The notes under the pieces: generated by a model | The model's input: the letters and a program-made list of their open reading frames with translations, nothing else | Told to the model about the DNA's origin: nothing | Database searches by the model: none | Made by a program: the position numbers and the translations under genes | NCBI GenBank assembly: GCA_963755025.1 | Contig: CAVWIH010000034.1 | Coordinates: 96,001 to 160,000 of the forward strand | Length of the DNA: 64,000 nucleotides | Direction of reading: 5' to 3' | Origin: an uncultured Actinomycetes bacterium | Lineage (GTDB): Bacteria > Actinomycetota > Thermoleophilia > UBA2241 | Shown: one piece after another, positions 27,652 to 42,620 of the stretch | Layout of the letters: every line of letters starts with the position of its first letter | How positions within the stretch are numbered: the first letter of the stretch is position 1

Positions 27652-28686
27652 CTACTCCTTCTCGACCTCGCCCTGCGGGTCGATGAGCGCGGCCAGTCCC
27701 TCGATCACCGCGACGCCGTCGTCGACGACGACAGCGTCGGCGTTGCGCGCGATGGGGGCGCGATCATCTGAGTTGATCGCGGCGATGAAGGCGGCGCGCT
27801 CTATGCCCCAGTGCAGGGCCGGCGCGCCCGACGCCCCGACCACAAGGCAGACCGCCGGCGCCGTGCGCGTGCCCGAGGCACCGACGAGCCGGTCCGCCGG
27901 CGCCCAGGCGTTCATCACCACAGGGCGGCTGACGCCGAAGTCGGCTCCCATGCGCTGGGCGGCGCGCGCGATGCGGGCGACGCCGTCGGGACCGCCGGCC
28001 CCGTACCCCGCGACCACCACGAACCGGCTGTCGGCGAGACCGCCGGCCGGCGGCCCCGCCACCAGCTCGACGTCGGTCATCGGGGCGGGCCCGGCGTCGC
28101 CGGGGCCGGCAGCGTCGGACACGACGTGGTGAGCCGGCGTGGGGAGCGGGCGAGCGTCGTTCCACGAGGCGTCGAGCGCCACGCACCACGGCCGGCGCGA
28201 GAGCTCGAAGCGCCCTGCCATGTGGTTGGAGTAGACGTTGGCGCGCGCCCAGAGGCGCGCGCCGCCGAGCACGCCGGTGAGCTCCGCGTCGAGCACGCCG
28301 GTGAGCACGGCGCCGTCGCTGCCGCAGGCGAGGCGCGTGAGCACCTCGGCGCCCCAGGGCCCCGCCGGCGCCAGGAACAGCTCGGTCTCGCCGCCCCGGG
28401 CCGCCGCCAGAAGGCTCGCAGCCGCGAGGTCGGGGCGGCGCGGCGGCACGCGCACGAGCCGCACGTCGCGGGTGGGCGCCAGGGCGACCAGCTCCTGCGC
28501 CTCGCAGTCGTCGGTCACGAAGATGACGGTCTCGCCGACGAGGCCCTCGCCTGCGCTGCCCTCGGCCGTGACGTGCGCGCCCGTGGGGCCGCCGGCCGTC
28601 AGGCCGCCGGCCAGGAAGGCGGCCAGCGCGCGCGCCTGACGCGACGCGCTGGCGGTCGTGCCGTCGATGAGGGCGGCGAACCTCAC
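27652..28686 (-). CDS. electron transfer flavoprotein alpha (FixB/YgcQ-like)
   Basis: GVSRPVVMNAW, VGASG, GASGA, AINSDDRAPI..AD. Confidence 0.8.
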   Translation of the reverse strand: MRFAALIDGTTASASRQARALAAFLAGGLTAGGPTGAHVTAEGSAGEGLVGETVIFVTDDCEAQELVALAPTRDVRLVRVPPRRPDLAAASLLAAARGGETELFLAPAGPWGAEVLTRLACGSDGAVLTGVLDAELTGVLGGARLWARANVYSNHMAGRFELSRRPWCVALDASWNDARPLPTPAHHVVSDAAGPGDAGPAPMTDVELVAGPPAGGLADSRFVVVAGYGAGGPDGVARIARAAQRMGADFGVSRPVVMNAWAPADRLVGASGTRTAPAVCLVVGASGAPALHWGIERAAFIAAINSDDRAPIARNADAVVVDDGVAVIEGLAALIDPQGEVEKE

Positions 28687-29771
28687 AGCGCCTCGAGGAG
28701 CACGCGCAGGTGGCTGTCGTACAGGGCTCGCGCCTTGTCGCGCGGTCCGGCGCCGTCGACGACGGCGCCGGACCGCGCGCGGTCGATCACCTCGAGGTTG
28801 CGCAGGGCGGTGGGCTCGCGGTGCAGTCCCGCGGCCACGTCGACCCCCAGCTCGGCCGGCGCGACGATCTCGGCGGGGCTGTCGCGGCGCGCGAGGCGGT
28901 CGCGCAGGGTCGGCACGCGCAGGCGCGACACGATCGCGTTGCCGACGGCCAGCACCACGGGGCCGCGCACCGTGAGGCGCAGCAGTCCCTCGTCGGTCGT
29001 GCAGGCCACGCGCAGGCCGCCGCCGGCCAGCGGTTCGAGCTCGGTGACCTGGCTGAGGCAGGGCCGGCCGAGCGCCGCGGCCACGCGGAACGGTACCGTG
29101 CCGCCGTCGCCCGGCCCGCTACGGCAGCCCAGCAGCAGAACGTCGCAGGGCTCGCGCCGCGCCACATAGCTCGCGATCAGCGACGCCACGACGGCGGGGG
29201 CAAAATCGAGGTCGGGCTCGACGTCGAGTCTGGCGGCGCGCTCGTAGCCCAGCGCGAGCAAGGTGGTGAGGTGCGGCTCGACCTCGCGCCCGCCGACCGA
29301 CAGCGCGGCAAGGCTCGCGCTGCCGCCGCGTTGCGCGACGGTATCGCGCAGGCGCAGCGCCAGCTCGAGGGCGCTTTCATCGAAGCAGTTGAGTACGCGG
29401 CGCACGTAGCGCGTCGGCACGCGCGGCGCGGCCTCGTCGGCGGCCGAGACCCCGCCGCCCGGCCTCGCGGCCTCGTCGGCGGCCGAGACCCCGCCGTTCA
29501 GCCTCGCGGCGGCGTCGGCCGGCGCCCCGCCGCCTGGCCCTCCGGCCGCGCCGGCGGCCCAGTCGGCGGGGCGCAGCGCCTCGAAGTCGGGGGTCACCTC
29601 GAACGACACGAGCACCCGCAGGGCGCCCGGCGAGCCGGGAGCGCGCGCGTCGCCGGCGCCGTTCGCCGAGCCGGGAGCGCGCGTGTCGCCGGCGCCGCTC
29701 ACCGCAGCGGGAACGTCACCGGGCGTGGAGCGGCCCTCACCACCGCGGGAGCGCCGTCGTGTCGGGCGCAC
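28683..29771 (-). CDS. electron transfer flavoprotein beta (FixA/YgcR-like), with low-complexity insertions
   Basis: LNCFDESALELALRL, LLGCRSGPGDGG, LRVPTLRD. Start uncertain. Confidence 0.75.
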   Translation of the reverse strand: MRPTRRRSRGGEGRSTPGDVPAAVSGAGDTRAPGSANGAGDARAPGSPGALRVLVSFEVTPDFEALRPADWAAGAAGGPGGGAPADAAARLNGGVSAADEAARPGGGVSAADEAAPRVPTRYVRRVLNCFDESALELALRLRDTVAQRGGSASLAALSVGGREVEPHLTTLLALGYERAARLDVEPDLDFAPAVVASLIASYVARREPCDVLLLGCRSGPGDGGTVPFRVAAALGRPCLSQVTELEPLAGGGLRVACTTDEGLLRLTVRGPVVLAVGNAIVSRLRVPTLRDRLARRDSPAEIVAPAELGVDVAAGLHREPTALRNLEVIDRARSGAVVDGAGPRDKARALYDSHLRVLLEAL

Positions 29772-29774
29772 CGC

Positions 29775-31217
29775 TCACCGCGGAAAGATCGTCCCCACGT
29801 TCATGATGCCCTTGGGGTCGAACGCCGTCTTGAGCGTCTCGAGGATGTAGTAAGAGGAGCCGTATTCGTCTTTGACCCAGGGCGCCCGCGCCTTGCCCAT
29901 GCCGTGGTGGTGCACGATGGAGCCGCCGCGCTTGAGGGTCTCTTCGCAGATGATGCTGATGATCGGCAGGTAGTAGGCGGCGGTCTCCTCTTCGGGGCCC
30001 ACGCCGACCACGTTGAAAAAGTAGTTGAAGTACATGTTGGTGCCGTTGATGTAGCTGTGCGAGGAGTGCCCGCCCATCATGGTGATGTCGGGGATCTCGG
30101 CGATGATGCGCGCCCGCGCCGCCTGGTAGATGTCGTTGATCGAGCCCCAGTCGGCGGAGATCTCAGTGGTGCGGTTCACGTTGCGCGTCTGGCGGATGCG
30201 CTCGTCTTCGGCGGTGATCTTGCTCGCGTCCCAGCAGAGGTCGTTGAACCAGGTCTCGATGTAGGCGCTGTCGACCGGCGTGCACTCGGGGTGGCGCGCG
30301 ACGATCGCGGCGATGCCCTCGGCCGTCGCCTTGGCGATGCCGGCGGGGCCTTCGGCCATGAAGAGCAGCACGCAGTCGTCGGGAGCGGCGAAGTGGGCGA
30401 AGTGGATGCCGGCGTCGCCCGGGTCGTAGACCCGCGCCACCGACGGCTTGTAGCCGTTGACCATGACGTCGCGCAGCGCCTCGAAGCCGACCTTCATGTC
30501 TTTGAGCGTCCAGCCGAGGAAGGCGTTGTTCTCGGGGAAGTACGGGAAGAGCTTCACCGTGACCTCGGTGATGAAGCACAGGGCGCCCTCGTTGCCGATG
30601 ACGACGTGGCGGATGTCGGGCCCCGCGGCGCGGCGCGGCACGTTCTTGATGCGCGTCACCTGACCGTTGGGGAACACCGCTTCGAGGCCGACGACCATGT
30701 CTTCGATGCCGCCGTAGAGCGTGGAGAACTGGCCGATGCTGCGCGTCGCCACGAGCCCGCCCAGGTGGGCCACGGGCTTTGACTGCGGCGAGTGGCCCGT
30801 GGTGAGCCCGAGCTCGCGCACGCGGTCTTCGAGGGCCTGCAGCGGGACGCCGCACTGGCAGGTGGCCTGCATGTTGTAGGCGTCGATGCTGACGATCTCG
30901 TTCATGGCCGAGCCGTCGATGATGATCGAGTCGGGCACGGCGCTCTCGAGGCCGCCCTCCGTGGCCGTGCCGCCGGTGCGTGGGATGACGTTGACGCCGT
31001 GCTCGGCGGCGAAGCGCAGGATGGCGGCGACCTGCTCGGCGCTGCGCACCATGGCGATCGCCGCCGGCACCGGCATCGTGTGCGCGTCGAAGATGTTCTG
31101 CAGCTTGCGGAAGTTGTCGACGCTGCTCTGCACGAGGATCTTCTCGTCGGTCACGACGTCGGCGGGCGCGACGATGCGCCGCAGGCCCTCGACGATGCCC
31201 TCTCTGCTCAGGTCCAT
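29775..31217 (-). CDS. ygcU: FAD-binding oxidase (YgcU / alkyl-DHAP synthase-like)
   Basis: PRTGGTATEGGLE, GHSPQSKP, TRSIGQFSTLYGGIEDMV, HHHGMGK, FDPKGIMN. Confidence 0.85.
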   Translation of the reverse strand: MDLSREGIVEGLRRIVAPADVVTDEKILVQSSVDNFRKLQNIFDAHTMPVPAAIAMVRSAEQVAAILRFAAEHGVNVIPRTGGTATEGGLESAVPDSIIIDGSAMNEIVSIDAYNMQATCQCGVPLQALEDRVRELGLTTGHSPQSKPVAHLGGLVATRSIGQFSTLYGGIEDMVVGLEAVFPNGQVTRIKNVPRRAAGPDIRHVVIGNEGALCFITEVTVKLFPYFPENNAFLGWTLKDMKVGFEALRDVMVNGYKPSVARVYDPGDAGIHFAHFAAPDDCVLLFMAEGPAGIAKATAEGIAAIVARHPECTPVDSAYIETWFNDLCWDASKITAEDERIRQTRNVNRTTEISADWGSINDIYQAARARIIAEIPDITMMGGHSSHSYINGTNMYFNYFFNVVGVGPEEETAAYYLPIISIICEETLKRGGSIVHHHGMGKARAPWVKDEYGSSYYILETLKTAFDPKGIMNVGTIFPR

Positions 31218-31287
31218 GGTGGCGATCCTTTGTCTACTGTCGTTTGCGTGTCGGACTGTACGGCCGGGCCGGGCGCTGACGCCTTCG

Positions 31288-32724
31288 TCAGTGAAAGATC
31301 GGATAGGAGCGTTCGAGGATGCCGTCGGTGGCCGTGCCGATGCTCTGATAGACGGTCTTGTTCATGCGCTGGTAGACGTCGGCGTTGGCGGGGCGCGGCG
31401 CGAACGATTCGCGCGCCTTGGTCATGCGCGCCACGGCCGTGTCGAAGTCGGGGTAGACGCCGGTGGCGACCGCCGCGCAGATGGCGGCGCCGAGGCTCGC
31501 CCCGCCGCTCGCCACACAGCGCGACGAGGGGATGCCGAAGACGTCGGCGAAGATGCTCATGAACAGGTCGCTGGCGGCGCCGCCGCCCGAGACGGCGATG
31601 CTCTCGAGCGTGATGCCGAGCTCGTCGCACATGGCGTCGACCTTGTTCTTCATGGTGAGGGCGATGGCTTCGAGGATCGAGCGGTAGACGTGGCCCCTGG
31701 TGTGGCGCGCGTCGAAGCCGATCATGACGCCCTTGCGGAAGGGCTTGTCGTCGGGCGCCAGCCAGTCGAGCACGGTCATGAGGCCGTCGCTGCCCGGCGC
31801 CACGAGCTGCGCCTCGCGTTCGAGGTAGAGCTCACGCGAGATGCCGGCGTTGGCGGCGGCCTGGGCGAACTCTTCGCCCAGCAGGTCGAGGAACCAGGTG
31901 ATCGTCCACATGCCGCGCCGTATGCCGTGGCTCTCGTAGAGGTACTTGTGCGGCGCGCAGGCGAAGTTCGTCCAGAACTCGGTGGGCGTCTTCACGTTGT
32001 CGTGGCCGTGCACCATGGAGGCGATGTAGGTGCCCAGCGAGACCAGCGCGGTCTTCTCGTCGATCAGGCCGGAGCCCAGGGCCTCGGTCGCTTTGTCGTT
32101 GGCGGTGGTGACCACGGGCAGCCCCGCGGGAATGTCGGTCGCCGCGGCGGCCGCGGCGGTGACGTAGCCGGCGACGTCGCCCGGCATCTGCAGCTCGACC
32201 AGCATCTCGCGCGGTATGTCCCAGCGCTCGAAGGCCGCCTGGTCGTCGCTCCACTGCCAGGTGTCGGTGTCGATCGGCCACTGGCCCTCGATGTTGTTGG
32301 CCGCGCTGTCGACAAAGCGCCCCGTGAAGCGGTGGGTGATGTAGCCCGACGAGGTGGTCACGTAGGCGGTCTCCGGGTTGTCGTGCGAGTAGGGGCGGTA
32401 GGCGCGCGTGTCCATCCAGCTCATCACCGGCGACGAGAGCGTGCCGTCGCGCTTGAGAAAGGCGCGTTCGCAGCGGATGGTGCACAGGCCGAGCCCGATG
32501 ATGTCGGCGGGGTCGCCGGGGAAGGCCGCCATGGCGTGCCGGCTGGCCGCGGTGATGGTGTCCCAGAGGTCGTCGTCGGGGTGCTCGACGACGCCGTTGC
32601 GCGGGCGGCTCATGGGGCGCAGGACCTGCCGGCCCTGACAGACGACGTTACCTTCGAGGTCGAAGACGACGACTTTCGCGCTCTGCGAGCCTGCGTCGAC
32701 TCCGATGATGTACTTGCCCGACAT
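31288..32724 (-). CDS. ygcE: FGGY sugar kinase (YgcE-like)
   Basis: KYIIGVDAGSQSAK, EHPDDDLW, CTIRC, VMSWMD, SLGTYI. Confidence 0.85.
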   Translation of the reverse strand: MSGKYIIGVDAGSQSAKVVVFDLEGNVVCQGRQVLRPMSRPRNGVVEHPDDDLWDTITAASRHAMAAFPGDPADIIGLGLCTIRCERAFLKRDGTLSSPVMSWMDTRAYRPYSHDNPETAYVTTSSGYITHRFTGRFVDSAANNIEGQWPIDTDTWQWSDDQAAFERWDIPREMLVELQMPGDVAGYVTAAAAAATDIPAGLPVVTTANDKATEALGSGLIDEKTALVSLGTYIASMVHGHDNVKTPTEFWTNFACAPHKYLYESHGIRRGMWTITWFLDLLGEEFAQAAANAGISRELYLEREAQLVAPGSDGLMTVLDWLAPDDKPFRKGVMIGFDARHTRGHVYRSILEAIALTMKNKVDAMCDELGITLESIAVSGGGAASDLFMSIFADVFGIPSSRCVASGGASLGAAICAAVATGVYPDFDTAVARMTKARESFAPRPANADVYQRMNKTVYQSIGTATDGILERSYPIFH

Positions 32725-32810
32725 CGTTGATCTTCGCTCCCTGGTCATGAGTTGCTTGCGAGCCGGCCCGACGGGCCTTGACCTGCGACCGTTCCCAGCG
32801 CCGCGTCAGA

Positions 32811-33587
32811 CTAGCGGACCAGGTAGCCGCCATCCACCAGCAGGACGTGGCCGTTGACGTAGTCAGAGGCGCGGCTGGCCAGAAAGACGACGGCGCCCAT
32901 GAGGTCGGCGGGGTCGCCCCAGCGGCCGGTGGCGATGTGGTCGAGGACGCGCTTGTTGGTCTCGGGGTTGCTGCGCGTCTGGGTGGTGATCTCGGTGGCG
33001 TAGTAGCCCGGCGCGATGCCGTTGACCTGGATGTTGTGCTGAGCGAGCTCGTCGCAGTAGGCCTTGGTGAGCCCGGCGATGCCGTGCTTGCTGGCGGCGT
33101 AGGCCGACGACCACTGTCCGCCCAGGTAGGTGAAGACGGAGCAGATGTTGATGATCTTGCCGCTGCGCTGCGGCACCATGAGCTTGGCGGCCTCGTAGCT
33201 CATCTCGAAGGCGGCCGTGAGGTTGACCGCGATGGTGGCGTCCCACTGCGCGCGCCCGAACTCGAGGACCTCGGCCAGCGGGCACACGCCGGCGCTGTTG
33301 ATAAGGATGTCGAGCGAGCCGAAGCGTTCGACGCAGGCCGCGACCACCTGCGCGGGGGCGCCGGGGGCCGTGATGTCGGCCTTCATGAACTCGTAGCGGC
33401 CGCCGGCGGCGGTGATGAGCGGTCCGGTGGTGCCGTCGTCGTCGACGATGCTCGGCACCAGCACGTTGGCGCCGCCCTTGGCGAGCGCCAGGGCGAAGGC
33501 CTGGCCGAGACCGGTGTTGCCGCCGGTCACGACGGCGTTCTTGCCCTTCAGCGAGAAGAACTCCATCGTGAAATCGCTGATCTCCAT
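32811..33587 (-). CDS. ygcW: short-chain dehydrogenase (YgcW/KduD-like)
   Basis: MEFFSLKGK..TGGNTGLG, YAASK, ASDYVNGH..VDGGYLVR. Confidence 0.88.
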   Translation of the reverse strand: MEISDFTMEFFSLKGKNAVVTGGNTGLGQAFALALAKGGANVLVPSIVDDDGTTGPLITAAGGRYEFMKADITAPGAPAQVVAACVERFGSLDILINSAGVCPLAEVLEFGRAQWDATIAVNLTAAFEMSYEAAKLMVPQRSGKIINICSVFTYLGGQWSSAYAASKHGIAGLTKAYCDELAQHNIQVNGIAPGYYATEITTQTRSNPETNKRVLDHIATGRWGDPADLMGAVVFLASRASDYVNGHVLLVDGGYLVR

Positions 33588-33877
33588 GGCGGCTGTCTCC
33601 TTTACCGGCGCTGGCGGTGTCGTGCTCGATTGTGGGGCGTTCACGCGCTGGCGACCGCGTGTCGCGAGAACCTGAGTATTCGGCGGAAAGTTCGTCGAGT
33701 CAAGCCGTCAAAAGAACCTTCTGCCGTTGCAGACGGTGACGACGGCATTGTGCGCGCGCCAAGCGGCGTTTGGCGCGTGCCTTGCGTTGGCCACCGTCGC
33801 CTTGACGCGTGCCTGCGGCCGGCGGGCGGGGCGCGGAGCGCCCCGCCCGCCGGCCGCGACGGTCGCGGCTCGAGGGC

Positions 33878-34792
33878 TCACTCGGGCTCGAGCTCGGCGG
33901 GGAACCCGGGGGCGCGCAGGTCGGTGCCCACGGCGTCTTCGAGCATCTTGACGACCATGGGCGACTGGGCGTCGCCGCCGTACAGGGCGCGGGCCCGCGC
34001 GAAGATCTGCTCGGTGAGGCCGGCGAGCTCGAGCGGCACGCCGAACTCGCGCCCCATCTGATGGGCGAAGTAGAGGTCCTTGCGCGCCAGGTCCATGGTG
34101 AAGTTGATGTTGTAGCTGCCGTTCAGGATGAGCTGGCCCTCGGTCTCGTGCACGAAGCTGTTGCCCGAGCTCGCTTTGATCACGTCCCAGGCCGTCTTCA
34201 GGTCGACGCCGCTGCGTTTGGCCAGCATGAGCGCCTCGCCGTCGGCTACGAGGTGGATGAAGGCGAGCATGTTGGTGATCACCTTGATGGCCGAGGCGCG
34301 GCCCAGCTCGCCGATGTAGAAGACGCGGTCGCCCATCGCCTGCAGGGCGGGCAGGTGGCGCTCGTAGACGGCCTGGTCGCCGCCCACCAGCACGGTGATC
34401 ATGCCGGCCGCGGCGCGGTGCACGCCGCCGGTCACCGGCGACTCGAGCACGGAGACCCCCTTCTCGGCCGCGAGGGCGGCGAGGCGCTGCAGCTCGTGGG
34501 GATCGTTGGTGCTCATGTCGACCCACGTGCCGCCGCCGGCCAGGCCTTCGAACACGCCCTGCGGGCCGGCGGTCACCGCGGTCACGACCTCGGGTGAGGG
34601 CAGGCAGGTGATGACCGTGTCGGAGAGGCGCGCGACGGCGGCGGGCGAGTCGGCCCAGGCGGCGCCCGCCTTGAGCAGATCGTGCGCGGCCTTGGGGTCG
34701 ATGTCGTTGACGGTCACCGTAAAGCCGGCGCGCAGCAGGCTGCCGGCCAGGTGGCGGCCCAGACTGCCCAGACCGATATAGCCGATCTTCAT
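33878..34792 (-). CDS. NAD(P)-dependent beta-hydroxyacid dehydrogenase family protein
   Basis: IGYIGLG, DMSTN, ESPVTGGVHRA, KVITN, SSGNSFVHETE. Confidence 0.88.
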   Translation of the reverse strand: MKIGYIGLGSLGRHLAGSLLRAGFTVTVNDIDPKAAHDLLKAGAAWADSPAAVARLSDTVITCLPSPEVVTAVTAGPQGVFEGLAGGGTWVDMSTNDPHELQRLAALAAEKGVSVLESPVTGGVHRAAAGMITVLVGGDQAVYERHLPALQAMGDRVFYIGELGRASAIKVITNMLAFIHLVADGEALMLAKRSGVDLKTAWDVIKASSGNSFVHETEGQLILNGSYNINFTMDLARKDLYFAHQMGREFGVPLELAGLTEQIFARARALYGGDAQSPMVVKMLEDAVGTDLRAPGFPAELEPE

Positions 34793-34858
34793 GTACGTCG
34801 CCTCCGTTGTTCGTGGGGTGCCGGGTCGCGGGCGCGGCGCTCTCCGCGCTCTCCCGCT

Positions 34859-36319
34859 CTATTCGTGACGCGCGCGACGGATGTCGCTGGCGCTCGCCTG
34901 GCAGATGGCGGCCAGGCCGTCGATCTGGTCGTCGCTCAGGCAGGGCTCTTTGGCGGCGTGCGCGGCCAGCAGGCGCTCGACCGTGTCGCAGGCCACGTCG
35001 TTCTCGGTGCGGCCTTCTTCGAGCCACTTGTCGTACGACAGGCGGTTCGACACGCCCGGCTGCAGGTGTTCGCCCGCGCGCACGCGGCGCGCCGTGTCTT
35101 TCTCGCCGAGAAAGCCGCCGCCCGGCCCGACCCGGGCGATCGACTCGGCGGCCAAGGTGGCGTCGGAGACCTCGACGTCGCCGTGAAGGCGGCGCACCAT
35201 GGCGGCGATCTCGTCGTCGACGACCGACTGCGGCAGGTACATGGTGTTGTGCGAATCGATCAGGCCCCAGCCCGTGACGATGTCGGGGTTGGCGCTGCAC
35301 ACGCCGGCCACCTTGAGGGCCTTCTCGTAGCCGGTCTGCAGGCCGGCGTGCTTGCTGTCGGTCGACAGTCCCGGGCTCAGCGTGGGCACGCCCACGTAGT
35401 GGCCGACCTCGGTGGCCATGGCCGCCATGAGGGCGCTCTCGACGCAGCCCAGCGAGAAGGTCGTGCGCAGCATGTCGAGCACGCCGGAGCCGAAGCAGAA
35501 GATGAGCCGCGCCCCGGGCGCGGCGACCTGCAGGGCGGTGGCGACGCCTAGGAACTCGGCGAGCCCCTGCACGACCGAGCCCGCCAGCGTGACCGGCGAG
35601 GTCGCCCCGGCGATCGTCATGGAGTAGACCTCGATCGGTATGCCCAGGGCGGCCAGCGCGACGTGGACGTCGAGCACCGGCCCCTCGACCTGGAGCGGCG
35701 AGGCGGCCGTGCAGACTGTCGAGAAGCGCGGCCGCTCGCGGAACGCCTCGAGGCTGCCCGAGAGCACTTCGCAGATGCGCACGACGGCGTCGACCTCGTT
35801 GGGGCAGTCGACGAAGGTCACGTGCTGCGAGGTCTCGGTGAGCATGGTGAAGTACTCGATGAGCTCGCGCCGGTCGAGCGCGACGTCGGTGGCGCTGACC
35901 TGGGTCCACATGAGGTCGAGCTGCGGCAGTTCGTCCATGAGCGCGGTGCACTCGCGCAGGTCCTGCAGCGTGCTGGGGCGGCGCGCGCCCGTGCGAAAGT
36001 CGAGCGTCTTGGCGACGCAGCCGCTCGGCGCAAAGCGGAACCGCTGGTCGGCGCCGAGCAGGGCGTCGTCGGCCGGCGTGGCGCCGGCCATGGTGAAGGA
36101 GCGCGGGCACTGGGAGATGGCCCACTCGACGAGCTCGCGGGGCAGGCGGACGATGCCGGTAGCCTCGTCGACCTGGGCGCCGCGGGCGGCCAGCAGGGGC
36201 AGCGTGCGCGAGCCGGCCAAGCGTATGCCGACCGTCGCCAGCAGGTCGATGGCCTGGTCTGCGATGCGGCTCTTCTCGTGCTCTGAGAGCCACGCGGTCC
36301 GTGCCTTCACAAGCCTCAC
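34859..36319 (-). CDS. non-pyrrolysine MttB-superfamily methyltransferase (quaternary amine type)
   Basis: RRPSTLQD, SPL, AGATSPVTLAG, DMLRT, PGLSTDSK..QTGYEK, VVDDEI, VGPGGGFL. Ser occupies the Pyl-equivalent site. Confidence 0.88.
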   Translation of the reverse strand: MRLVKARTAWLSEHEKSRIADQAIDLLATVGIRLAGSRTLPLLAARGAQVDEATGIVRLPRELVEWAISQCPRSFTMAGATPADDALLGADQRFRFAPSGCVAKTLDFRTGARRPSTLQDLRECTALMDELPQLDLMWTQVSATDVALDRRELIEYFTMLTETSQHVTFVDCPNEVDAVVRICEVLSGSLEAFRERPRFSTVCTAASPLQVEGPVLDVHVALAALGIPIEVYSMTIAGATSPVTLAGSVVQGLAEFLGVATALQVAAPGARLIFCFGSGVLDMLRTTFSLGCVESALMAAMATEVGHYVGVPTLSPGLSTDSKHAGLQTGYEKALKVAGVCSANPDIVTGWGLIDSHNTMYLPQSVVDDEIAAMVRRLHGDVEVSDATLAAESIARVGPGGGFLGEKDTARRVRAGEHLQPGVSNRLSYDKWLEEGRTENDVACDTVERLLAAHAAKEPCLSDDQIDGLAAICQASASDIRRARHE

Positions 36320-36563: not shown

Positions 36564-37100
36564 ATGATCAGAGCGGGGCAGGCCCCCTTCGGCACGGTCG
36601 CCATGGACGAGCTCGACCGCGGCATCGTGCAGCTGCTGCGCCCTAACGCGCGGCGCTCGTACGCCAGCGTCGCGCGCGCCCTCGGCGTCTCCGAGCCCAC
36701 GGTGCGCAACCGCGTCGACCGCCTCATCGCCAAGGGCGCCGTCTTTCAGCGGGCCAGCGTCAACCCCGCGGCCATCGGTCTACCCGTCGACGCCATGGTC
36801 GGCATCCGCGTGAACCGCGGCTACTCAAAGGGGGTTGGGGCGCGCCTCGCCGCCATGGAGAACGTAGCCTACGTGGGCTACACCACCGGCTCGTTCGACA
36901 TCCTGATCGAGGCGCACCTGCCCGACAACGAGGGCCTCTACAAGTTCTTGAACGAAGACCTCGAAGAGATCGAGGGCGTGGCCTACACCGAGACCTGGCA
37001 CATCCTGCGCACCGACAAGACCAACATCGAGTGGGAGGGCGAGATGGTCGGGCACGCTCCCCTCGAGGTCGTCGACGACCTCGAGGGCGCCGACGCTTGA
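36564..37100 (+). CDS. Lrp/AsnC-family regulator
   Basis: MDELDRGIV..NARRSYASVARALGVSEPTVRNRV, TTGSFDI. Confidence 0.92.
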   Translation: MIRAGQAPFGTVAMDELDRGIVQLLRPNARRSYASVARALGVSEPTVRNRVDRLIAKGAVFQRASVNPAAIGLPVDAMVGIRVNRGYSKGVGARLAAMENVAYVGYTTGSFDILIEAHLPDNEGLYKFLNEDLEEIEGVAYTETWHILRTDKTNIEWEGEMVGHAPLEVVDDLEGADA

Positions 37101-37186: not shown

Positions 37187-38596
37187 GTGACGACAGAAGA
37201 CCGGGTGCCGACCCGAATGGCCGACGGCACCTTCGTGCGCCTGACGCGCAGCGAGATCAAGGCCGATCTCGTGGCCGGGTCAGAGGCGGCGGCCAAACGC
37301 GCCAAGGTGGCGCCGCTGACCGACGACGAGATCGACCACCTGCTCGACATCTACGCCTCGCCGGCGCGCTTTACCGGGGTCGACGTGGGCGACGAGATCG
37401 TCCTTTCCTGCGACGGCACCGGCATGAAGACCCACGCCACGCGCATCCAGGACCTGCAGACCTACGAGCAGTGGATGGGCGCCGACCTGCTCGAGCTGTG
37501 CGTGGGCGACTACTCGCTCAAGGTCGTGCGCACCATCCTCGCCTACGAGGCGCAGTACATGCACGACGCCCAGCTCTGCACGGTGGCGCCGCTGCAGTAC
37601 GGCGTCATGCCCAACCTGGGCCTCTATTCCAAGCCCGACGGCCCCTGCGACAACTGGAACGAGCTCCTGCCGCTGGGCCGCATCGACGAAGCGCGGGCGT
37701 CTGAAGAAGAGGCCGTCGAGATGGCCGTGGTCGACATGGTGCGCCTGGCCGACACGCAGTACGAGGCCGGCGCCGACGCCATCGACTGGGACACGACGGG
37801 CGCCTCGGGCGACCCCGAGTTCCTGGCCGCGCTGCGCGCCACCGCCATCATCCGCAAGAAGTACCCCGACTTCGGCGTGCAGCTGGGCATGGCCGGCGAG
37901 TTCGTGCTGGGCATGCACGGCCGGCTCGAGTACGAGGGCGTGCGCCTCGCCGGCCTGTGGCCTAAAGACCAGCTGCTGCTCGCCCAGCAGGCCGGCGCCA
38001 CCATGTTCGGGCCGGTCGTCAACGTGAACACCGGCAAGAGTTGCGCCTGGAACATCGCCCGGGCGATCGCCCTGGTCAAGCCGTGCATGGACGTAGCCAC
38101 CATCCCCGTCCACATGAACGCCGGCATGGGCGTGGGCGCCGTGCCCATGTTCGTGCACCCGCCGGCCGACGCCGTGTGCCGGGCGGCCAAGTCGTGCGTC
38201 GACATCCTGCACCTCGACGGCTTATAGGTTGGTTCCGGCGACCCGCATGGCATGCACAGTGCGCATGCGCAGGCGGCGGGCATGGGCGGAATGCGAGCAG
38301 CCGGAGACCTGGTTGCTCGCCTGCAGATGACCCGCGGTATGCGTCTGGCGCAAGCAAAAGACTATGTGGCCGGCAAGCTCGGCGTGACGCCGTTCGACCT
38401 GTCCGACCCCGTCGTCATGACCGACGTGCGCAACGACTTCGGCTTTGGCCGCATCCACAGCTACGCCATCAGTCAGCCGGCGCAGGCCAACCAGATCGAG
38501 GCCAAGGTGAACATCGCGCGCGTGCTCGACATACCCATCAACTGTGTGGAGCGCTTCAGGGAACGTACGACGCCGGTCGCCGGCGGCGTGCGCTGA
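37187..38596 (+). CDS. mtbB: dimethylamine:corrinoid methyltransferase, pyrrolysine-containing (TAG 38225-38227, codon 347 of 469)
   Basis: ORFs 37136 and 38252 are one frame. TRMADG, MPNLGLY..PDGP, DTTGASGD, GEFVLGMHG, LAGLWP, then DGL-O-VGSGDP..GMRAAGDLVAR. This matches Methanosarcina MtbB DGI-O-IGVGDP..RAAGDLVAR as recalled. Confidence 0.93.
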
Positions 38597-38621
38597 CGCG
38601 GCGACCGAGGGAGGGCGACTG

Positions 38622-40097
38622 ATGATCCGCAACCCGCGCGCCGGCGCGCGCAAGAGCGGCGGCTTTCGGCTCGAGGTGTTCACCGACGACGAGCTGCGCG
38701 AGATCCACCTGGCGACGCTCGAGGTGCTGTCGCGCACCGGCGTCTTCGTCGAAGACGACGAGGCGCTCGAGCTGTTCGCCCAGGCGGGCGCCGACATCGA
38801 CCGCGAGCGCCGCGTCGTGCGCCTGCCGGCGCACCTGGTCGAAGACGCCGTCGACGCGGCGCCCTCCACGGTCGTGCTCTGCGGGCGCGACCCGGCGAAC
38901 GACGTGGTCTTAGAAGACGGCCGCGTCGGCTTCACCAACTTCGGCGAGGGCATCCAGGTCGTCGATCCCTACACGGGCGAGCTGCGCGAGTCGCACAAGG
39001 CCGACGTGGCCGACTGCACGCGCCTGATCGACGCCCTGCCCGAGATCGACGTCGTCGAGCGCCCCCTCGGGGCGCACGACGTGCCGCCCGACACGGCGGC
39101 CCTGCACAACGCCGAAGCGATCTTCTCGAACACCACCAAGCACGCCACCATCGGCCCGCTCTCGGGCTTCTGCGCGGTGAAGATGATCGACATGGCGGCC
39201 GCCATCGCCGGCGGCCGAGACCGCTTGCGCAGGCGGCCCATCCTCTCGTTCCTCACCTGCCCGGTGAGCCCCCTCAAGCTCGTCGCCGACGCCTGTCGCA
39301 TCATCATCGAGGGGGCTCGTGCCGGGGTGCCGGTCAACGTGCTCTCCATGGCCATGGCCGGCGGCTCGTCGCCGGTGAACCTGGCCGGCACGCTGGTCAC
39401 CCACAACGCCGAGGTGCTCGCCGGCATCACGCTGGCACAACTCACCGTGCGCGGCGCGCCCGTCATTTACGGCTCGTCGACGACCGCCATGGACCTGCGC
39501 TACGCGAGCGCCTCGGTGGGCAGCCCGGAGTGCGGCATGATCGGCGCCGGGGTGGCCTGCCTGGCGCGCTTCTACTTGCTGCCCAGCTGGGTCGCCGGTG
39601 CGTAGGGCGACTCCAAGGTGGCCGACGCCCAATCCGGTCACGAGAAGACACTCACCAGCCTGCTACCGGCGTTGGCAGGGGCCAACCTGATCTATGGGCT
39701 GGGGATGTTGGAATCGGGCGTCACCATCGACTACGCGCAGCTCGTCATGGACGCCGAGTTCGCGCGCATGGTCAAGTTCTGCGTGCCGGGCATCGCCGTG
39801 AACGACGAGACCCTGTCGGTCGACGTCATCGCCGAGATCGGCCCGTTCAGCGACTTTCTCTCACACGACGACACCTACCGCGGCATGCGCGGCCAGTCGC
39901 GCTCGAAGTTGATCGACCGGCGGGTCCGCGAGGAGTGGGTCGCCGCCGGCTCGACGACGCTCTACGAACGCTCGCGCGCCGAAGCCTGCCGCCTGCTCGA
40001 GAGCCACGTGCCGCAGCCGTTGCCGCCCGAGGTGGCCGCCGAGCTTGCCGCCATCATCGCGGCGGCAGAGCTGGAGCTCGGCGTGGGGCCGGCCTGA
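38622..40097 (+). CDS. mttB: trimethylamine:corrinoid methyltransferase, pyrrolysine-containing (TAG 39603-39605, codon 328 of 491)
   Basis: ORFs 38544 and 39618 are one frame. CPVSPL, NVLSMAMAGGSSPV, HNAEVL, YGSSTT, VGSPE, then WVAGA-O-GDSK..QSGHEKT..LPALAGAN.IYG.GMLE, the Pyl-MttB signature. Confidence 0.95.
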
Positions 40098-40177: not shown

Positions 40178-40993
40178 TCAGGCGACCCGATCGAACGAAG
40201 GGTCGCTCGCCGGAAAGCCGAGCGTGGTGCGCACCGTGCCGTCGCCTTCGACGATCAGCGCGCTGTAGCCGCGCAGTCCCGCCACCCGAGCCAGGGCCTT
40301 GCCGCCCGACGCCAGCAGAGCGGTGGCCAGGGCGTCGACGAAGGCCAGGTCGGGGCCTACCACGGTCGCCGCGAGCAGTTCCTGGGCGGCTTCGCCGGAG
40401 TGGGGGTCGAACACGTGCAGGCCGCGCTCGTAGTTGCCCGAGGTGGCCACCGCGCGGTCGTGGCCGCCCAGCGTGACCACGGTGAGCAGACGGTCGGCGG
40501 CCAGGGGGTGGCGTATGCCCACGCGCCACGGCTGGCCCTCTTCGGGCTCGCCGAACACGGCCACGTCGCCGCCGGCGTTGATCATGGCGCCCGCGGCGCC
40601 CGAGGCGCGCACCTCGGCCAAGGCGAGCTCGGCGGCCCAGCCCTTGACCAGGCCCGTGGGGTCGACGCCGCCCGGCAGCGCCCAGGGGTCGAACCAGCCG
40701 CCCGACGCCTCGCGCGCCCGGCGGCAGAGCTCGAGCACCTGGGCGACCTCGGGCGGCGCCTCGTCGAGCGATATCTCGCCGCGCCGCAGGCGGCTCACGG
40801 GGCTGTCTGGCTGCCAGGTGCTGAACACCTGGTCGACGTGGTGCAGCACGGCGACCGCGCGCTGCGCGGCGGCGGCCGTCGCAGAGGTCGCCGACGCCTC
40901 GCCGCCGGTCTCAGTCGCCGCCGCCGTTGTCGCCGCCGCTTCCCGGATCACCAACGACACCACCGTGCCCATTACCGCTTCCGAGAGCTGCAT
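40178..40993 (-). CDS. apbE: FAD:protein FMN transferase (ApbE family)
   Basis: VMGT, DPTGLVKGW, INAGGD, WRVGIRHP, VATSGNYERG, DALATA. Confidence 0.88.
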   Translation of the reverse strand: MQLSEAVMGTVVSLVIREAAATTAAATETGGEASATSATAAAAQRAVAVLHHVDQVFSTWQPDSPVSRLRRGEISLDEAPPEVAQVLELCRRAREASGGWFDPWALPGGVDPTGLVKGWAAELALAEVRASGAAGAMINAGGDVAVFGEPEEGQPWRVGIRHPLAADRLLTVVTLGGHDRAVATSGNYERGLHVFDPHSGEAAQELLAATVVGPDLAFVDALATALLASGGKALARVAGLRGYSALIVEGDGTVRTTLGFPASDPSFDRVA

Positions 40994-40999
40994 TGGTCC

Positions 41000-41160
41000 C
41001 TCCGGTCGTGATCTTGCCGTGCCTGGCGCTCACGCGCACCTGGATGTCGCCGAGGCCGCGCGAGATCGACTGGTCGATGCCCAACGCGCTCGTCCCGACG
41101 CCCACGCCGCCGGCACTACCGCCGCGCGCTTCACGGTCGCGGTGAGGTCGCCGTGGTCAT
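41000..41160 (-). pseudogene. remnant of FMN-binding (flavinylation substrate) protein
   Basis: Strong RBS plus ATG at 41160 stops after 9 codons. Another frame reads GDIQVRVSARHGKIT, which is FMN_bind-like. Lies between the ferric reductase and apbE. Confidence 0.5.
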
Positions 41161-41183
41161 GCGTGACCCTCCTTGCGCGCGCA

Positions 41184-42620
41184 CTAGAACTCGAAGTCTT
41201 CGTGATGGATGCGCTCGCTGCGCACCCCGAGCCGGCGGGCCTGGGCGATGAGCTGCTTCATGAAGCCGCTGGGGCCGCAGACGTACAGGTCGCGGGCGGC
41301 GATGTCGGGCACGAGGCGCTGCAGGCGGCCGGCGTCGAGAGGCTGCTCGGCGCGCGGGCCCACGATCTCGTGCAGGCGCCCGCCGCGCACCCCGACCAGC
41401 TGCGTGATCTCGTCGCGCAGCACGAGGTCGTGGGCCGAAGAGCCGCGCAGCAGCACGACCACGTCGACGTGCCGCGGCAGGTCTTCGAGCATGGCCCGCA
41501 CCGGCGTCGCGCCGACACCGGCGGCCACCAGCAGCACCCGGTCGGTGTCGCGGGCGTAGCGCGTGAAGGCGCCGTAGGGCCCCTCGATCGCCACGGCCGT
41601 GCCCGGCTTGAGCCGGGCCAGCGCCGAGCTGTGCTCGCCGGCCGCTTTGACCGTGATGCGCATCTCGTTGCCGCCGGGCAGCGCCGAGACCGAGTAGGGG
41701 TGCGCCCGCCACCACAGGCCGCGGGTGAGAAAGCGGAAGTTCATGAACTGCCCGCCGACGATCGGCAGCCGGTCGAGATGATGGCCGCGCACCACCAGAC
41801 TGATCACGCCGGGCGACTCCTGCTCGACGCGCGCCACCCTGAGGCGGTGGCTCAGGCTGCGCACGGTCGGCAGGCCGAAGCGGTAGCAGAGCACGACGCC
41901 GGCGGTCAGCAGCCAGAGGCCGATCCAGTAGGCGCGCGCCAGCGGGTGACCGATGAACGGCGTGCCGGTGTCGATCTGGTGGCTGAAGGCGATGGCCGCG
42001 CCGAGGTACATGTACAGGTGGACCGTCCACCAGGTCTCGTAGCGCAGGTGTTTGCGCACGTTGCGGTACGAGGTCACGCCGGCCACGACGATCAGGCCCA
42101 GGCCGACGACCGCGCCGAGCATGCCGGGGAAGTGCGTGATCAGCGTGGCGAGCTCGTGCAGCAGGCCCGTCTTGACGCCTTGCGCGTAGCCCAGGGTGAT
42201 GAACAGGGCGTGGGCGACCAGCAAGATGATGACCCAGGGGCCGAGACGACGGTGCCAGCGCACGAGGGCGTCTTGACCGAGGGCCCGTTCGATCGCCGGT
42301 ATGCGCCCGACGAGCAGCACGGTGACCAGCAACAGGTAGGTGCCCAGCATGCCGGTCAGGCGGCCGATGGCCGTGGCCAGGCCGCCGGGAGCCACCAGGT
42401 CGTGCGGCGAGAGGGTGGGCAGCACGAGCCCCATGGTGACGATCGCACCGAGCAGGGTGAGGGTGCGGAAGATCCGCGTCCACATCATGTGCGGCCTCGG
42501 CAGCGCGCGGGCTCGCGTGCCGCTGCGCTCGCCGACGCGCCGCCTGCCGAGCTCGTCGGCGAGTGCGCCGGTGTCCCACTCATCACTCAAGGTCCTGTCG
42601 ACCTCCTCCGCGCGGGCCAC
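41184..42620 (-). CDS. ferric reductase-like membrane protein with FAD/NAD-binding domains
   Basis: WHRRLG, YETWWTVHLY, HPYSVS, IEGPYG, AAGVGATP, YVCGP, IHHEDF. Confidence 0.88.
   Translation of the reverse strand: MARAEEVDRTLSDEWDTGALADELGRRRVGERSGTRARALPRPHMMWTRIFRTLTLLGAIVTMGLVLPTLSPHDLVAPGGLATAIGRLTGMLGTYLLLVTVLLVGRIPAIERALGQDALVRWHRRLGPWVIILLVAHALFITLGYAQGVKTGLLHELATLITHFPGMLGAVVGLGLIVVAGVTSYRNVRKHLRYETWWTVHLYMYLGAAIAFSHQIDTGTPFIGHPLARAYWIGLWLLTAGVVLCYRFGLPTVRSLSHRLRVARVEQESPGVISLVVRGHHLDRLPIVGGQFMNFRFLTRGLWWRAHPYSVSALPGGNEMRITVKAAGEHSSALARLKPGTAVAIEGPYGAFTRYARDTDRVLLVAAGVGATPVRAMLEDLPRHVDVVVLLRGSSAHDLVLRDEITQLVGVRGGRLHEIVGPRAEQPLDAGRLQRLVPDIAARDLYVCGPSGFMKQLIAQARRLGVRSERIHHEDFEF

Follow-up and report, generated by a model that had tools for sequence, protein, structure and literature searches.

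The closest described relatives of the genes treated here are the pyrrolysine (Pyl) methyltransferases MttB and MtbB of Methanosarcina barkeri (PDB 7XCL and 7XCM; TIGR02369 and TIGR02368). How a UAG meant for Pyl is told apart from a UAG that ends a gene has been an open question for twenty years. In this study, we analyzed a window of 64,000 nt (GenBank assembly GCA_963755025.1, contig CAVWIH010000034.1; G000:C34:96001-160000, where G000 is the 3.37-Mb, 84% complete metagenome-assembled genome (MAG) of an uncultured Actinomycetes bacterium). It carries adjacent mtbB and mttB genes with one in-frame TAG each and, downstream of each TAG and inside the coding sequence, a short hairpin with a tetraloop of the pattern AG-R-N (R, purine; N, any nucleotide). 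The Pyl position is the same as in M. barkeri and the equivalents of G110 and Y364 are present, whereas here the host is a bacterium with tetrahydrofolate (THF) and no methanogenesis, the operon holds no corrinoid gene and MtbB falls in a divergent clade.

The decoding machinery has its counterpart in PDB 3DSQ/2ZNI, which we take to be the split PylSn plus PylSc system of Desulfitobacterium hafniense; this bacterial split-type structure is the best PDB match of the present PylSc (E 7e-86). Here, likewise, pylSn and pylSc are separate and the order is pylBCD-pylT-pylSn, but pylSc has the opposite orientation and lies some 4 kb away from pylSn, the system is near-universal in its family (82/89 genomes) instead of sporadic, and the genome holds twelve Pyl genes. 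For selenocysteine (Sec), the bacterial selenocysteine insertion sequence (SECIS) is a hairpin right after the recoded codon, within about 40 nt of it, whose apical loop begins with G and is read by SelB. The Pyl hairpin resembles it in lying inside the gene behind a recoded stop and in having a loop of specific sequence, but fails the SECIS-type definition in distance and loop: the SECIS-like hairpin of the formate dehydrogenase (fdh) gene of G000 bears a GGUCU loop and begins no more than about 15 nt from the UGA, whereas the Pyl loop is A-first and lies at +72, +78 or +114. No second SelB-like factor was seen in a motif search of G000.

RNA signals for Pyl have been sought before. Zhang and Gladyshev 2007 (PMC1976440), in its available passages, describes six MtbB, two MttB and both Sec and Pyl in the Olavius algarvensis delta-1 symbiont, and states that a bacterial cis-element was expected but no common RNA structure was found in bacterial Pyl genes. 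According to the accessible part of Theil Have 2013 (PMC3639795), a consensus structure exists for mtbB, none for mttB and none common to the families, and the available portion of PMC8318568 leaves PYLIS unmentioned.

Read with TAG as Pyl (O), each gene continues from its TAG (38225-38227 in mtbB, 39603-39605 in mttB) to a TGA and yields a product of 469 or 491 aa with the motif DGL-O-VGSGDP (O347) or VAGA-O-GDSK (O328), as an earlier note made from the sequence alone had described. The full-length MtbB scores 414.7 against the curated cut-off of 369.1 for TIGR02368 and also matches PF09505; MttB scores 730.9 against 525 for TIGR02369 and aligns end to end with M. barkeri MttB (PDB 7XCM, E 5e-122), its amber codon falling on Pyl334 and its G108 and Y358 on G110 and Y364. 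The placement of both ambers at the catalytic Pyl position (DGx-O-xGxGD in MtbB) thus holds. Gly110 and Tyr364 are given as invariant residues of MttB in the available text of PMC9842639. The expected splitting of such genes by standard annotation is also seen, public protein sets cutting most MtbB relatives at about 346 aa. A search of representative proteins with the part behind the amber yielded mainly short, separate fragments. It could be argued that both genes are split or dead, each TAG being a genuine stop or a sequencing error, as the assembly has many frameshifts (pylC, metF, one mtbB and a DmsA-like gene); however, all full-length relatives examined have the TAG at the identical codon, G000 has the pyl machinery, and two small near-complete genomes of the family without PylSc are also without MtbB, which makes this explanation exceedingly improbable. 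The in-frame TAGs are neither chance nor assembly error, and we consider it nearly certain that both genes are real Pyl genes.

The hairpin was present in all 12 Pyl genes of G000, seven mtbB and five Pyl-type mttB, with the AG-R-N tetraloop 72-78 nt after the UAG: AGAY at +78 in mtbB and AGGN at +72 in mttB. When G000 was scanned with an open frame required on both sides, 16 hits were obtained at 1234 TAG sites, all 12 Pyl genes included, against 2 at 739 TGA and 0 at 193 TAA sites, the background per window being 0.07-0.6%; the four other TAG hits were rejected as pyrroproteins because no protein continuity was seen. Among bacterial mtbB sequences the AGAY loop was found in 144/144, and a contiguous stem of at least 5 bp in 117. 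For mttB, loop plus 6-bp stem occurred in 43/46 sequences of the family, 51/53 metagenomic sequences, 3/5 from a second family of the class (f4) and 10/29 from Bacillota, the phylum inferred for a Peptococcaceae genome. Non-Pyl homologs (MttB and MtmB) are without the hairpin at the aligned site.

Covariation and resampling point the same way. In 62 bacterial mtbB dereplicated at 90%, pairing holds in 90.8% of cells against 79.2% after shuffling, 75 double changes stand against 27 (0/500 shuffles as high), one third-position pair holds in 58/62 with six pair types, and control structures slid along the alignment pair in 22-51%. The signal in mttB is weaker but in the same direction (86% against 83.1% pairing; 13 against 4.4 double changes). 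Synonymous resampling from each gene's own codon usage gave 1.7 expected against 55/59 observed hairpins in mtbB and 1.0 against 28/47 in mttB; these shuffle and resampling statistics ignore relatedness and therefore overstate the case, which is to be set against it, while the compensatory changes themselves are spread over two phyla and over paralog clades that share 44-60% identity. Real flanks raised the pairing probability of the mtbB hairpin in 25/25 cases (0.98 against 0.73). Long stems of 110-140 nt were considered and rejected: the window folds have z = -3.1 for mtbB and -0.9 to -1.8 for mttB, the mtbB consensus keeps only the apical hairpin, and a long mttB consensus stem, which comes from 12 similar sequences with little covariation, is not claimed.

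The third methyltransferase family, mtmB, which is unrelated to the other two, then served as an independent test. In 17 bacterial Pyl-mtmB from f4 and the present family, A followed by GG was found at +114 in 16, and a perfect 6-7 bp stem in 10 against 0.01 expected for a perfect stem of at least 6 bp; the loop A is kept through the codons GTA, ATA, CTA and GCA (Val, Ile, Leu and Ala). Of 34 non-Pyl MtmB homologs, one has a hairpin, which lies elsewhere and has a weak 5-bp stem. In a phylum sample of 301 genomes, the Bacillota mtbB, which include genes with a GC content at third codon positions (GC3) near 0.3, have the loop in 26/29 against 6.4 expected and loop plus stem in 21/29 against 2.4. 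Four archaeal mtbB, taken from a sample of 301 genomes, show the loop in one and the hairpin in none, and one archaeal mttB is without it; Deltaproteobacteria and methanogens lie outside the hairpin sampling at the DNA level.

These data bear on the view of the hairpins as a mere by-product, owed to protein-motif conservation and common descent and without function at the RNA level. Several stem pairs are indeed invariant, being dictated by codon positions one and two, the Rfam consensus, taken as largely built from methanogens, already folds the mtbB motif, and the sequences are related. Against this, five or six pair types occur among the covarying free third positions, the loop A persists in the face of each genome's codon bias (GGA in genes of 95% GC3, GCC...CTG at GC3 near 0.3), the loop survives four amino-acid changes in mtmB, and the four archaeal mtbB have a similar protein motif and no hairpin. 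Resampling, covariation and the mtmB and Bacillota/archaeal tests largely refute the by-product view, which we regard as very improbable; selection on the hairpin at the RNA level is accordingly held with high confidence, and a single signal shared by mtbB, mttB and mtmB is probable. Some points weigh against this reading. The AG-R-N pattern was fixed on mtbB and mttB, so that only mtmB is a prior test; the 17 mtmB are related (mean nucleotide identity 78%), six have one mismatch beside the loop and one has no hairpin. The contiguous stem is shorter than 5 bp in 27/144 mtbB, the Bacillota mttB are patchy (loop in 16/29, loop plus 6-bp stem in 10/29), and the archaeal contrast is thin, the single archaeal mtmB having an AGGA loop on a bulged stem.

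Codon usage provides a second line of evidence. TAG ends 944 of 2906 called genes of G000 (615 of 1870 confident genes), and the next in-frame stop lies within 10 codons after 11% of TAG and 12% of TGA stops, i.e. there is no excess of back-up stops. Because a third of the genes end at TAG without back-up stops, Pyl UAGs need marking. The GC3 of the window mtbB is 0.93-1.0 upstream of its TAG, 0.54-0.64 at codons +1 to +45 and 0.90-0.95 beyond, and that of mttB dips to 0.80 at +1 to +30. From a level of about 0.95, GC3 drops over the 45 codons after TAG to 0.66-0.88 (37 mtbB) or 0.82-0.87 (13 Pyl-mttB), with no dip (0.94-0.97) at the aligned place in 20 non-Pyl MttB. The drop is thus confined to the stretch after TAG and codon usage elsewhere is host-like, in agreement with the earlier note. 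It centres on fixed rare codons that mark the apex of the hairpin in mtbB and mttB, namely GGA at mtbB +26 (62/62; genome-wide use 3.2%), TTG at mttB +23 (42/46) and GCA at mttB +24 (45/46; 2.4% genome-wide). The constraint shows in this very GC-rich lineage because codons ending in A or T are conspicuous.

A rare codon just before the UAG is a second signal beside the hairpin. Codon -1 is TTG or TTA in 60/62 mtbB (60/61 where the residue is Leu), although TTR makes up 3.2% of Leu codons genome-wide; where Leu is encoded, the same holds for 17/17 mtmB and 28/28 Bacillota mtbB (TTG in 27/29 Bacillota mtbB overall). Leu codons before the stop in confident TAG-ending genes of G000, Pyl genes included, are CTG 26, CTC 18, TTA 6, CTT 5 and TTG 4. 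In mttB it is codon -2 that is uncommon, being GGT in 41/46 (6% of Gly genome-wide). Further fixed uncommon codons were noted at mtbB +5 and +8 (38240-38251; GAT in 53/62 and GGG in 44/62) and mttB +33 (GGG in 45/46); the apical hairpin leaves them unexplained and they may mark a second helix.

Part of this was already known. Rfam has two predicted elements of the type that Theil Have 2013 describes. One of them, PYLIS_2 (RF02509), includes the mtbB hairpin and matches the window at 38225-38324 (63.7 > 36) with the same apical hairpin and an aGAc loop, and matches all seven mtbB copies of G000; that model does not pair +75 with +84, and its additional 5' hairpin is a poor fit to the window mtbB. 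PYLIS_3 (RF02510) matches mttB at 39603-39702 (72.6 > 38), but several of its pairs are non-standard here and the supported hairpin is that at +66..+81. The mtmB hairpin at +114 falls outside the 100 nt covered by the Rfam models, in which no loop common to the families is named. In M. barkeri, the primer for mttB1 given in the available part of PMC9842639 reads GCC GGT at the loop position, so that the loop A is absent there. The loop common to the three families, the mttB and mtmB hairpins and family-wide Pyl in UBA2241 were not found in the full-text literature, a body that leaves subscription journals largely outside, and an RNA signal with a loop common to mtbB, mttB and mtmB and to two phyla appears to be new.

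As to its role, each Pyl gene would carry a 6-12 bp hairpin with an AG-R-N tetraloop 72 (mttB), 78 (mtbB) or 114 (mtmB) nt downstream of the UAG, together with the rare codon before it. A protein would read the loop in all three families and raise the yield of full-length Pyl protein, either by favouring Pyl-tRNA over release factor 1 (RF1) or by protecting the mRNA during the pause of the ribosome; a factor that recognises shape and loop would be expected to leave the loop conserved and the stems unrelated in sequence. We are inclined to think that the hairpin promotes read-through. Only tentatively do we extend this to a general bacterial Pyl insertion element, in which the AG-R-N hairpin would have arisen three times, in the unrelated genes mtmB, mtbB and mttB, would be common to Actinomycetota and Bacillota, and would be read by a dedicated factor, with PylSn as a candidate, so that UAG would encode Pyl in these genes and still end a third of all others; the present Thermoleophilia family would be its clearest carrier.

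A decoding role also has to face other facts: the loop lies 72-114 nt from the UAG at a variable distance, no binding factor was found for the hairpin, and the one conserved neighbour in the pyl cluster that was examined, a radical SAM gene beside pylSn, fails to track Pyl. This gene was rejected as the factor because it occurs in 48/61 f4 genomes against 9/61 with PylSc and is absent from the Pyl-positive genome G096; in the Atlas it falls in generic radical SAM clusters only. Moreover, the available passages of PMC12626013, PMC13663744 and bioRxiv 10.1101/2024.09.30.615893 report that a PYLIS is not needed in E. coli, that some Pyl genes have none, and that no mechanism targeting Pyl is known or required. 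The hairpin could then be selected but act on the message, as a site where a regulator or nuclease represses or removes Pyl transcripts after termination at the UAG, or as an RNA-polymerase pause or Rho block against polarity during the wait of the ribosome, with Pyl insertion depending on the supply of Pyl-tRNA as proposed for Methanosarcina. The distance of 72-114 nt fits a transcript role better than contact with the ribosome, G000 encodes Rho (motif match C26:20753), the hairpin is optional in Bacillota mttB, and supply-driven, element-free decoding is the current view as far as the available portions of the literature go. On the other hand, the depletion of third-position C at four-fold sites is found mainly in the hairpin zone and does not extend over the 135 nt downstream, speaking against plain avoidance of rut sites (broad C depletion against Rho is unsupported), no U-tract follows the stems, and the rare codon at -1 (TTR in 17/17 mtmB and 60/62 mtbB) points to a ribosome on the UAG. 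We consider action on the message a serious but less probable alternative to read-through.

Three further candidates were rejected. An internal Shine-Dalgarno reading of GGAG fails in that the next ATG is 14 nt away and mttB and mtmB have no GGAG. The motif of CsrA is GGA in a loop, but the mttB and mtmB loops are without GGA and no CsrA motif match was found. Mimicry of tRNA-Pyl was discarded since the tRNA-Pyl loops are without the AG-R-N tetraloop.

The machinery to which the hairpin would be coupled lies outside the window on contig C10 of G000, which carries pylB, pylC, pylD, pylT, pylSn, a corrinoid protein gene and the inverted pylSc, PylSc being found on this contig only. Scores against curated cut-offs are 125.8 > 51.15 for PylSn (TIGR03912), 277.6 > 178.15 for PylSc (TIGR02367), 423.3 > 348.2 for PylB and 173 > 150.05 for PylD, and pylT (C10:71096-71168) is a tRNA-Pyl with a CUA anticodon. 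These genes are intact apart from pylC, which is broken by one frameshift in the assembly and whose C-terminal part alone scores 244.3 against a cut-off of 248.3. The expanded genetic code proposed in the earlier note is thereby borne out. tRNA-Sec, SelB and SelD are encoded besides the Pyl system. MtmB was not found in G000 (84% complete), in line with the absence of mtmB and pyl genes noted for the window. Beyond the 12 methyltransferases, a genome-wide search of G000 for more pyrroproteins gave none; the genome also has about 20 non-Pyl MttB homologs. A Tat-signal DmsA-like molybdopterin gene (G000:C30:1176-6504, with DmsB-, NrfD- and TorD-like partners) has two in-frame TAGs near its N-terminus; no hairpin accompanies them, frameshifts abound in this stretch, and the gene was taken as an error or pseudogene. 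Homocitrate-synthase-, homoaconitase- and isocitrate-dehydrogenase-like genes stand directly upstream of pylB on the same strand (G000:C10:61803-66561) and might be linked to the supply of lysine or glutamate. The corrinoid-protein genes at C10:73338, C36:3784 and C16:26015 encode 99-100% identical proteins, and a second trio (C26:2109, C28:94203 and C11:110020) is alike by its N-termini; the two trios suggest recent duplication or gene conversion.

An actinobacterial host, anticipated in the earlier note for this very high-GC genome, agrees with the relatives found: PylSc is 79-94% and neighbouring housekeeping genes are 75-97% identical to sequences of Thermoleophilia, Actinomycetes or Actinomycetota MAGs. 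Genus Bog-752 is filed under Thermoleophilia, order and family UBA2241, in the available part of the PMC10805028 supplement, and G000 probably belongs in or near UBA2241. PylSc was found in 82/89 genomes of the family, 29/32 near-complete ones and 11/11 genera; across the class, evenly sampled with 401 genomes, it was present in 73/79 of this family, 9/61 of f4 and 0/260 of the remaining ten families. The pylSc neighbours are unchanged across the genera of the family, so that vertical inheritance of the Pyl system fits, and the long residence suggested before is upheld by the conserved chromosomal site. MtbB matches occur in 87/89 family genomes (1-15 matches, not copies, per genome), and among the 698 matches the 150 listed all have exactly one TAG. 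MttB was detected in 88/89, above the cut-off in 84, and of the 150 matches listed 148 have one TAG and two have two. TAG-bearing MtmB is found in 11/89 family genomes, while non-TAG MtmB homologs are widespread in this family and f4 (PF05369 in 70/89 family genomes); one clade of these non-Pyl MtmB-family enzymes is often near mtbB. Two family members, G022 and G023 (98% complete, 1.7-1.8 Mb), are without PylSc, MtbB and ACS, an apparent case of streamlining with loss of the expanded code.

The occurrence of such genes in the phylum, which the earlier note had put forward as its news, is already published. Pyl-type mttB and mtbB are reported to be expressed in some Actinobacteriota MAGs from Stordalen Mire (Ellenbogen 2023, PMC10805028), whose supplement includes order UBA2241 and genus Bog-752; the available passages of that paper hold no pyl machinery, family-wide count, paralog analysis or RNA element. 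A 2022 survey (Guo 2022, PMC9630628), in its accessible part, lists pyrrolysyl-tRNA synthetase (PylRS) in 81 bacteria, two of them Actinobacteria, a whole bacterial set equalled by the 82 PylSc-positive genomes of this one family. In four RNA runs from wetland, peat and permafrost, contigs of relatives (88-99% identity) cover both genes; such contigs show neither level nor strand and are not counted as expression of G000. Six RNA runs share only a small part of matching words.

The coordinates of the features are listed in Table 1. Taken together, we lean towards the explanation that lrp-mtbB-mttB is a vertically inherited unit of a pyrrolysine-encoding Thermoleophilia bacterium, with Pyl chemistry and a decoding hairpin. 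An lrp homolog is present in 19/29 short loci around orthologous mtbB.

Table 1. Features of the mtbB-mttB locus (window coordinates).
Feature	Position	Strand	Basis
Non-Pyl MttB-superfamily gene, Ser at the Pyl position, divergent	34859..36319	-	TIGR02369 327.5 < 525
Lrp/AsnC-family regulator, probable local regulator	36564..37100	+	Lrp/AsnC-type matches below cut-offs
mtbB, Pyl-type dimethylamine-family methyltransferase, 469 aa, O347	37187..38596	+	TIGR02368, PF09505
Rare Leu codon TTA, then amber (Pyl) codon of mtbB	38222..38227	+	sequence, codon counts
mtbB hairpin, 12 bp, tetraloop AGAC at 38305-38308 (+78 nt from TAG)	38293..38320	+	apical part in Rfam PYLIS_2
Shine-Dalgarno-like GAGGGAGG, inside the 25-nt mtbB-mttB gap	38607..38614	+	sequence reading
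mttB, Pyl-type trimethylamine methyltransferase, 491 aa, O328	38622..40097	+	TIGR02369, 7XCM alignment
GGT GCG TAG: rare Gly codon at -2 and amber (Pyl) codon of mttB	39597..39605	+	codon counts
mttB hairpin, 6 bp, tetraloop AGGG at 39677-39680 (+72 nt)	39671..39686	+	within PYLIS_3 match, not that model's pairs

The non-Pyl MttB gene serves as an internal negative control, having neither hairpin nor codon anomaly. It ends in a TAG without a hairpin that is in frame with a 3-hydroxyisobutyrate-dehydrogenase-like neighbour (33878-36319, minus strand), so that unselective amber read-through would fuse both proteins. Behind it, at 28683-33644 on the minus strand, KduD-like short-chain dehydrogenase/reductase (SDR), FGGY kinase, FAD-linked oxidase and electron-transfer-flavoprotein-like (ETF-like) genes form a probable catabolic operon. 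Convergent with mttB (40178-42620, minus strand) are a gene for an ApbE-like flavin transferase (weak match) and one for a membrane protein that is ferric-reductase-like by sequence.

Demethylation of trimethylamine (TMA) and dimethylamine (DMA), as the earlier note supposed, is supported as far as the Pyl genes and machinery go; DMA is only a presumed substrate of the window MtbB, whose clade is divergent and family-specific, and this is to be held against our reading. G000 has seven mtbB copies, the others being 47-60% identical to the window copy. In a quick tree, the window MtbB fell in a divergent clade of 27 rows on a long stem (support 100), limited to the family and metagenomic relatives and apart from the f4 and archaeal rows. 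This tree was midpoint-rooted and built from 61 of 146 rows, those below 400 aa or above 88% identity being dropped, with six of the seven own copies and no characterised enzyme. The Pyl enzymes might therefore be real while the window MtbB and most paralogs act on N-methyl compounds other than DMA, a view compatible with the explanation favoured above. The number and divergence of the copies and the family-only clade on its long stem speak for it, as do the amino-acid permease, choline/ethanolamine-kinase-like and aminotransferase genes adjoining the paralogs. The window copy nevertheless scores above the MtbB equivalog cut-off, and in 23/29 related loci mtbB is paired with the best-scoring Pyl-MttB of the genome, as a route from TMA through DMA to monomethylamine (MMA) predicts. 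We consider a substrate other than DMA less likely than not.

By analogy with the characterised Methanosarcina enzymes, tRNA-Pyl(CUA), charged by the split PylSn plus PylSc, would read UAG as Pyl, MttB would take a methyl group from TMA, and MtbB would take one from DMA or a related secondary amine. The methyl group would go to a corrinoid protein encoded outside the operon (one copy within the pyl cluster) and kept active by RACo/AcsV, and a methyl-THF:corrinoid methyltransferase would pass it to THF. Oxidation would follow through HdrABC-MvhD-MetFV, FolD, Fhs and a Sec-type formate dehydrogenase, the electrons going to [FeFe] hydrogenases or oxidases and not to acetogenesis. G000 has genes for the methyl-THF:corrinoid methyltransferase (303 > 259), Fhs (785 > 652), FolD, two RACo/AcsV activators, glycine cleavage and a formate dehydrogenase (in-frame TGA), as well as a gene cluster for HdrA-, MvhD-, MetV-, MetF-, HdrC- and HdrB-like products; metF and the fdh region are frameshifted or split in the assembly. 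The Sec system, encoded at G000:C30:102586 and C24:14507, comprises this formate dehydrogenase with its SECIS-like GGUCU-loop hairpin, tRNA-Sec, SelB and SelD. An aa3-type oxidase, Nuo and a cytochrome bd motif occur together with two group A6 [FeFe] hydrogenases (G000:C14:125390-147074, C37:19832-38409), so that G000 may not be a strict anaerobe.

The Wood-Ljungdahl pathway, also raised earlier, was recovered in part: the methyl branch (Fhs, FolD, MetFV, methyltransferase and formate dehydrogenase (FDH)) is present, whereas carbon monoxide dehydrogenase/acetyl-CoA synthase (CODH/ACS) was not found. The genes cooS, acsB and acsE were not found in G000 (84% complete), including their syntenic places on C8; in two relatives they flank acsD-acsC-acsV-cooC, and G000 keeps that block alone (G000:C8:1823-7497), with an orphan corrinoid iron-sulfur protein as a result. 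ACS is present in 60/89 family genomes and was not found in five genomes of the same genus that are 92-100% complete. Because CODH/ACS was not found beside the methyl branch, G000 is probably no acetogen and probably oxidizes methyl groups instead of making acetate.

UBA2241 Thermoleophilia are reported as hgcA carriers and possibly methylotrophic in the available text of PMC7438021. In G000, hgcA (G000:C26:66479-67504; NF040863, 325.5 > 275) lies just downstream of an ACR3 arsenite exporter gene and an ArsR-like gene, which makes the organism a probable mercury methylator, in line with those reports.

The role of the hairpin can be tested by a few synonymous changes in the four-base loop with compensation in the stem. 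If it promotes read-through, it would be to Pyl what SECIS is to Sec and could serve to suppress amber codons at chosen sites without genome recoding; if it acts on the fate of the mRNA, it would still be a conserved control point of bacterial genetic-code expansion. Methylamine demethylation appears to be central to this wetland and soil family of Thermoleophilia, which could be a competitor of methylotrophic methanogens or could feed them.

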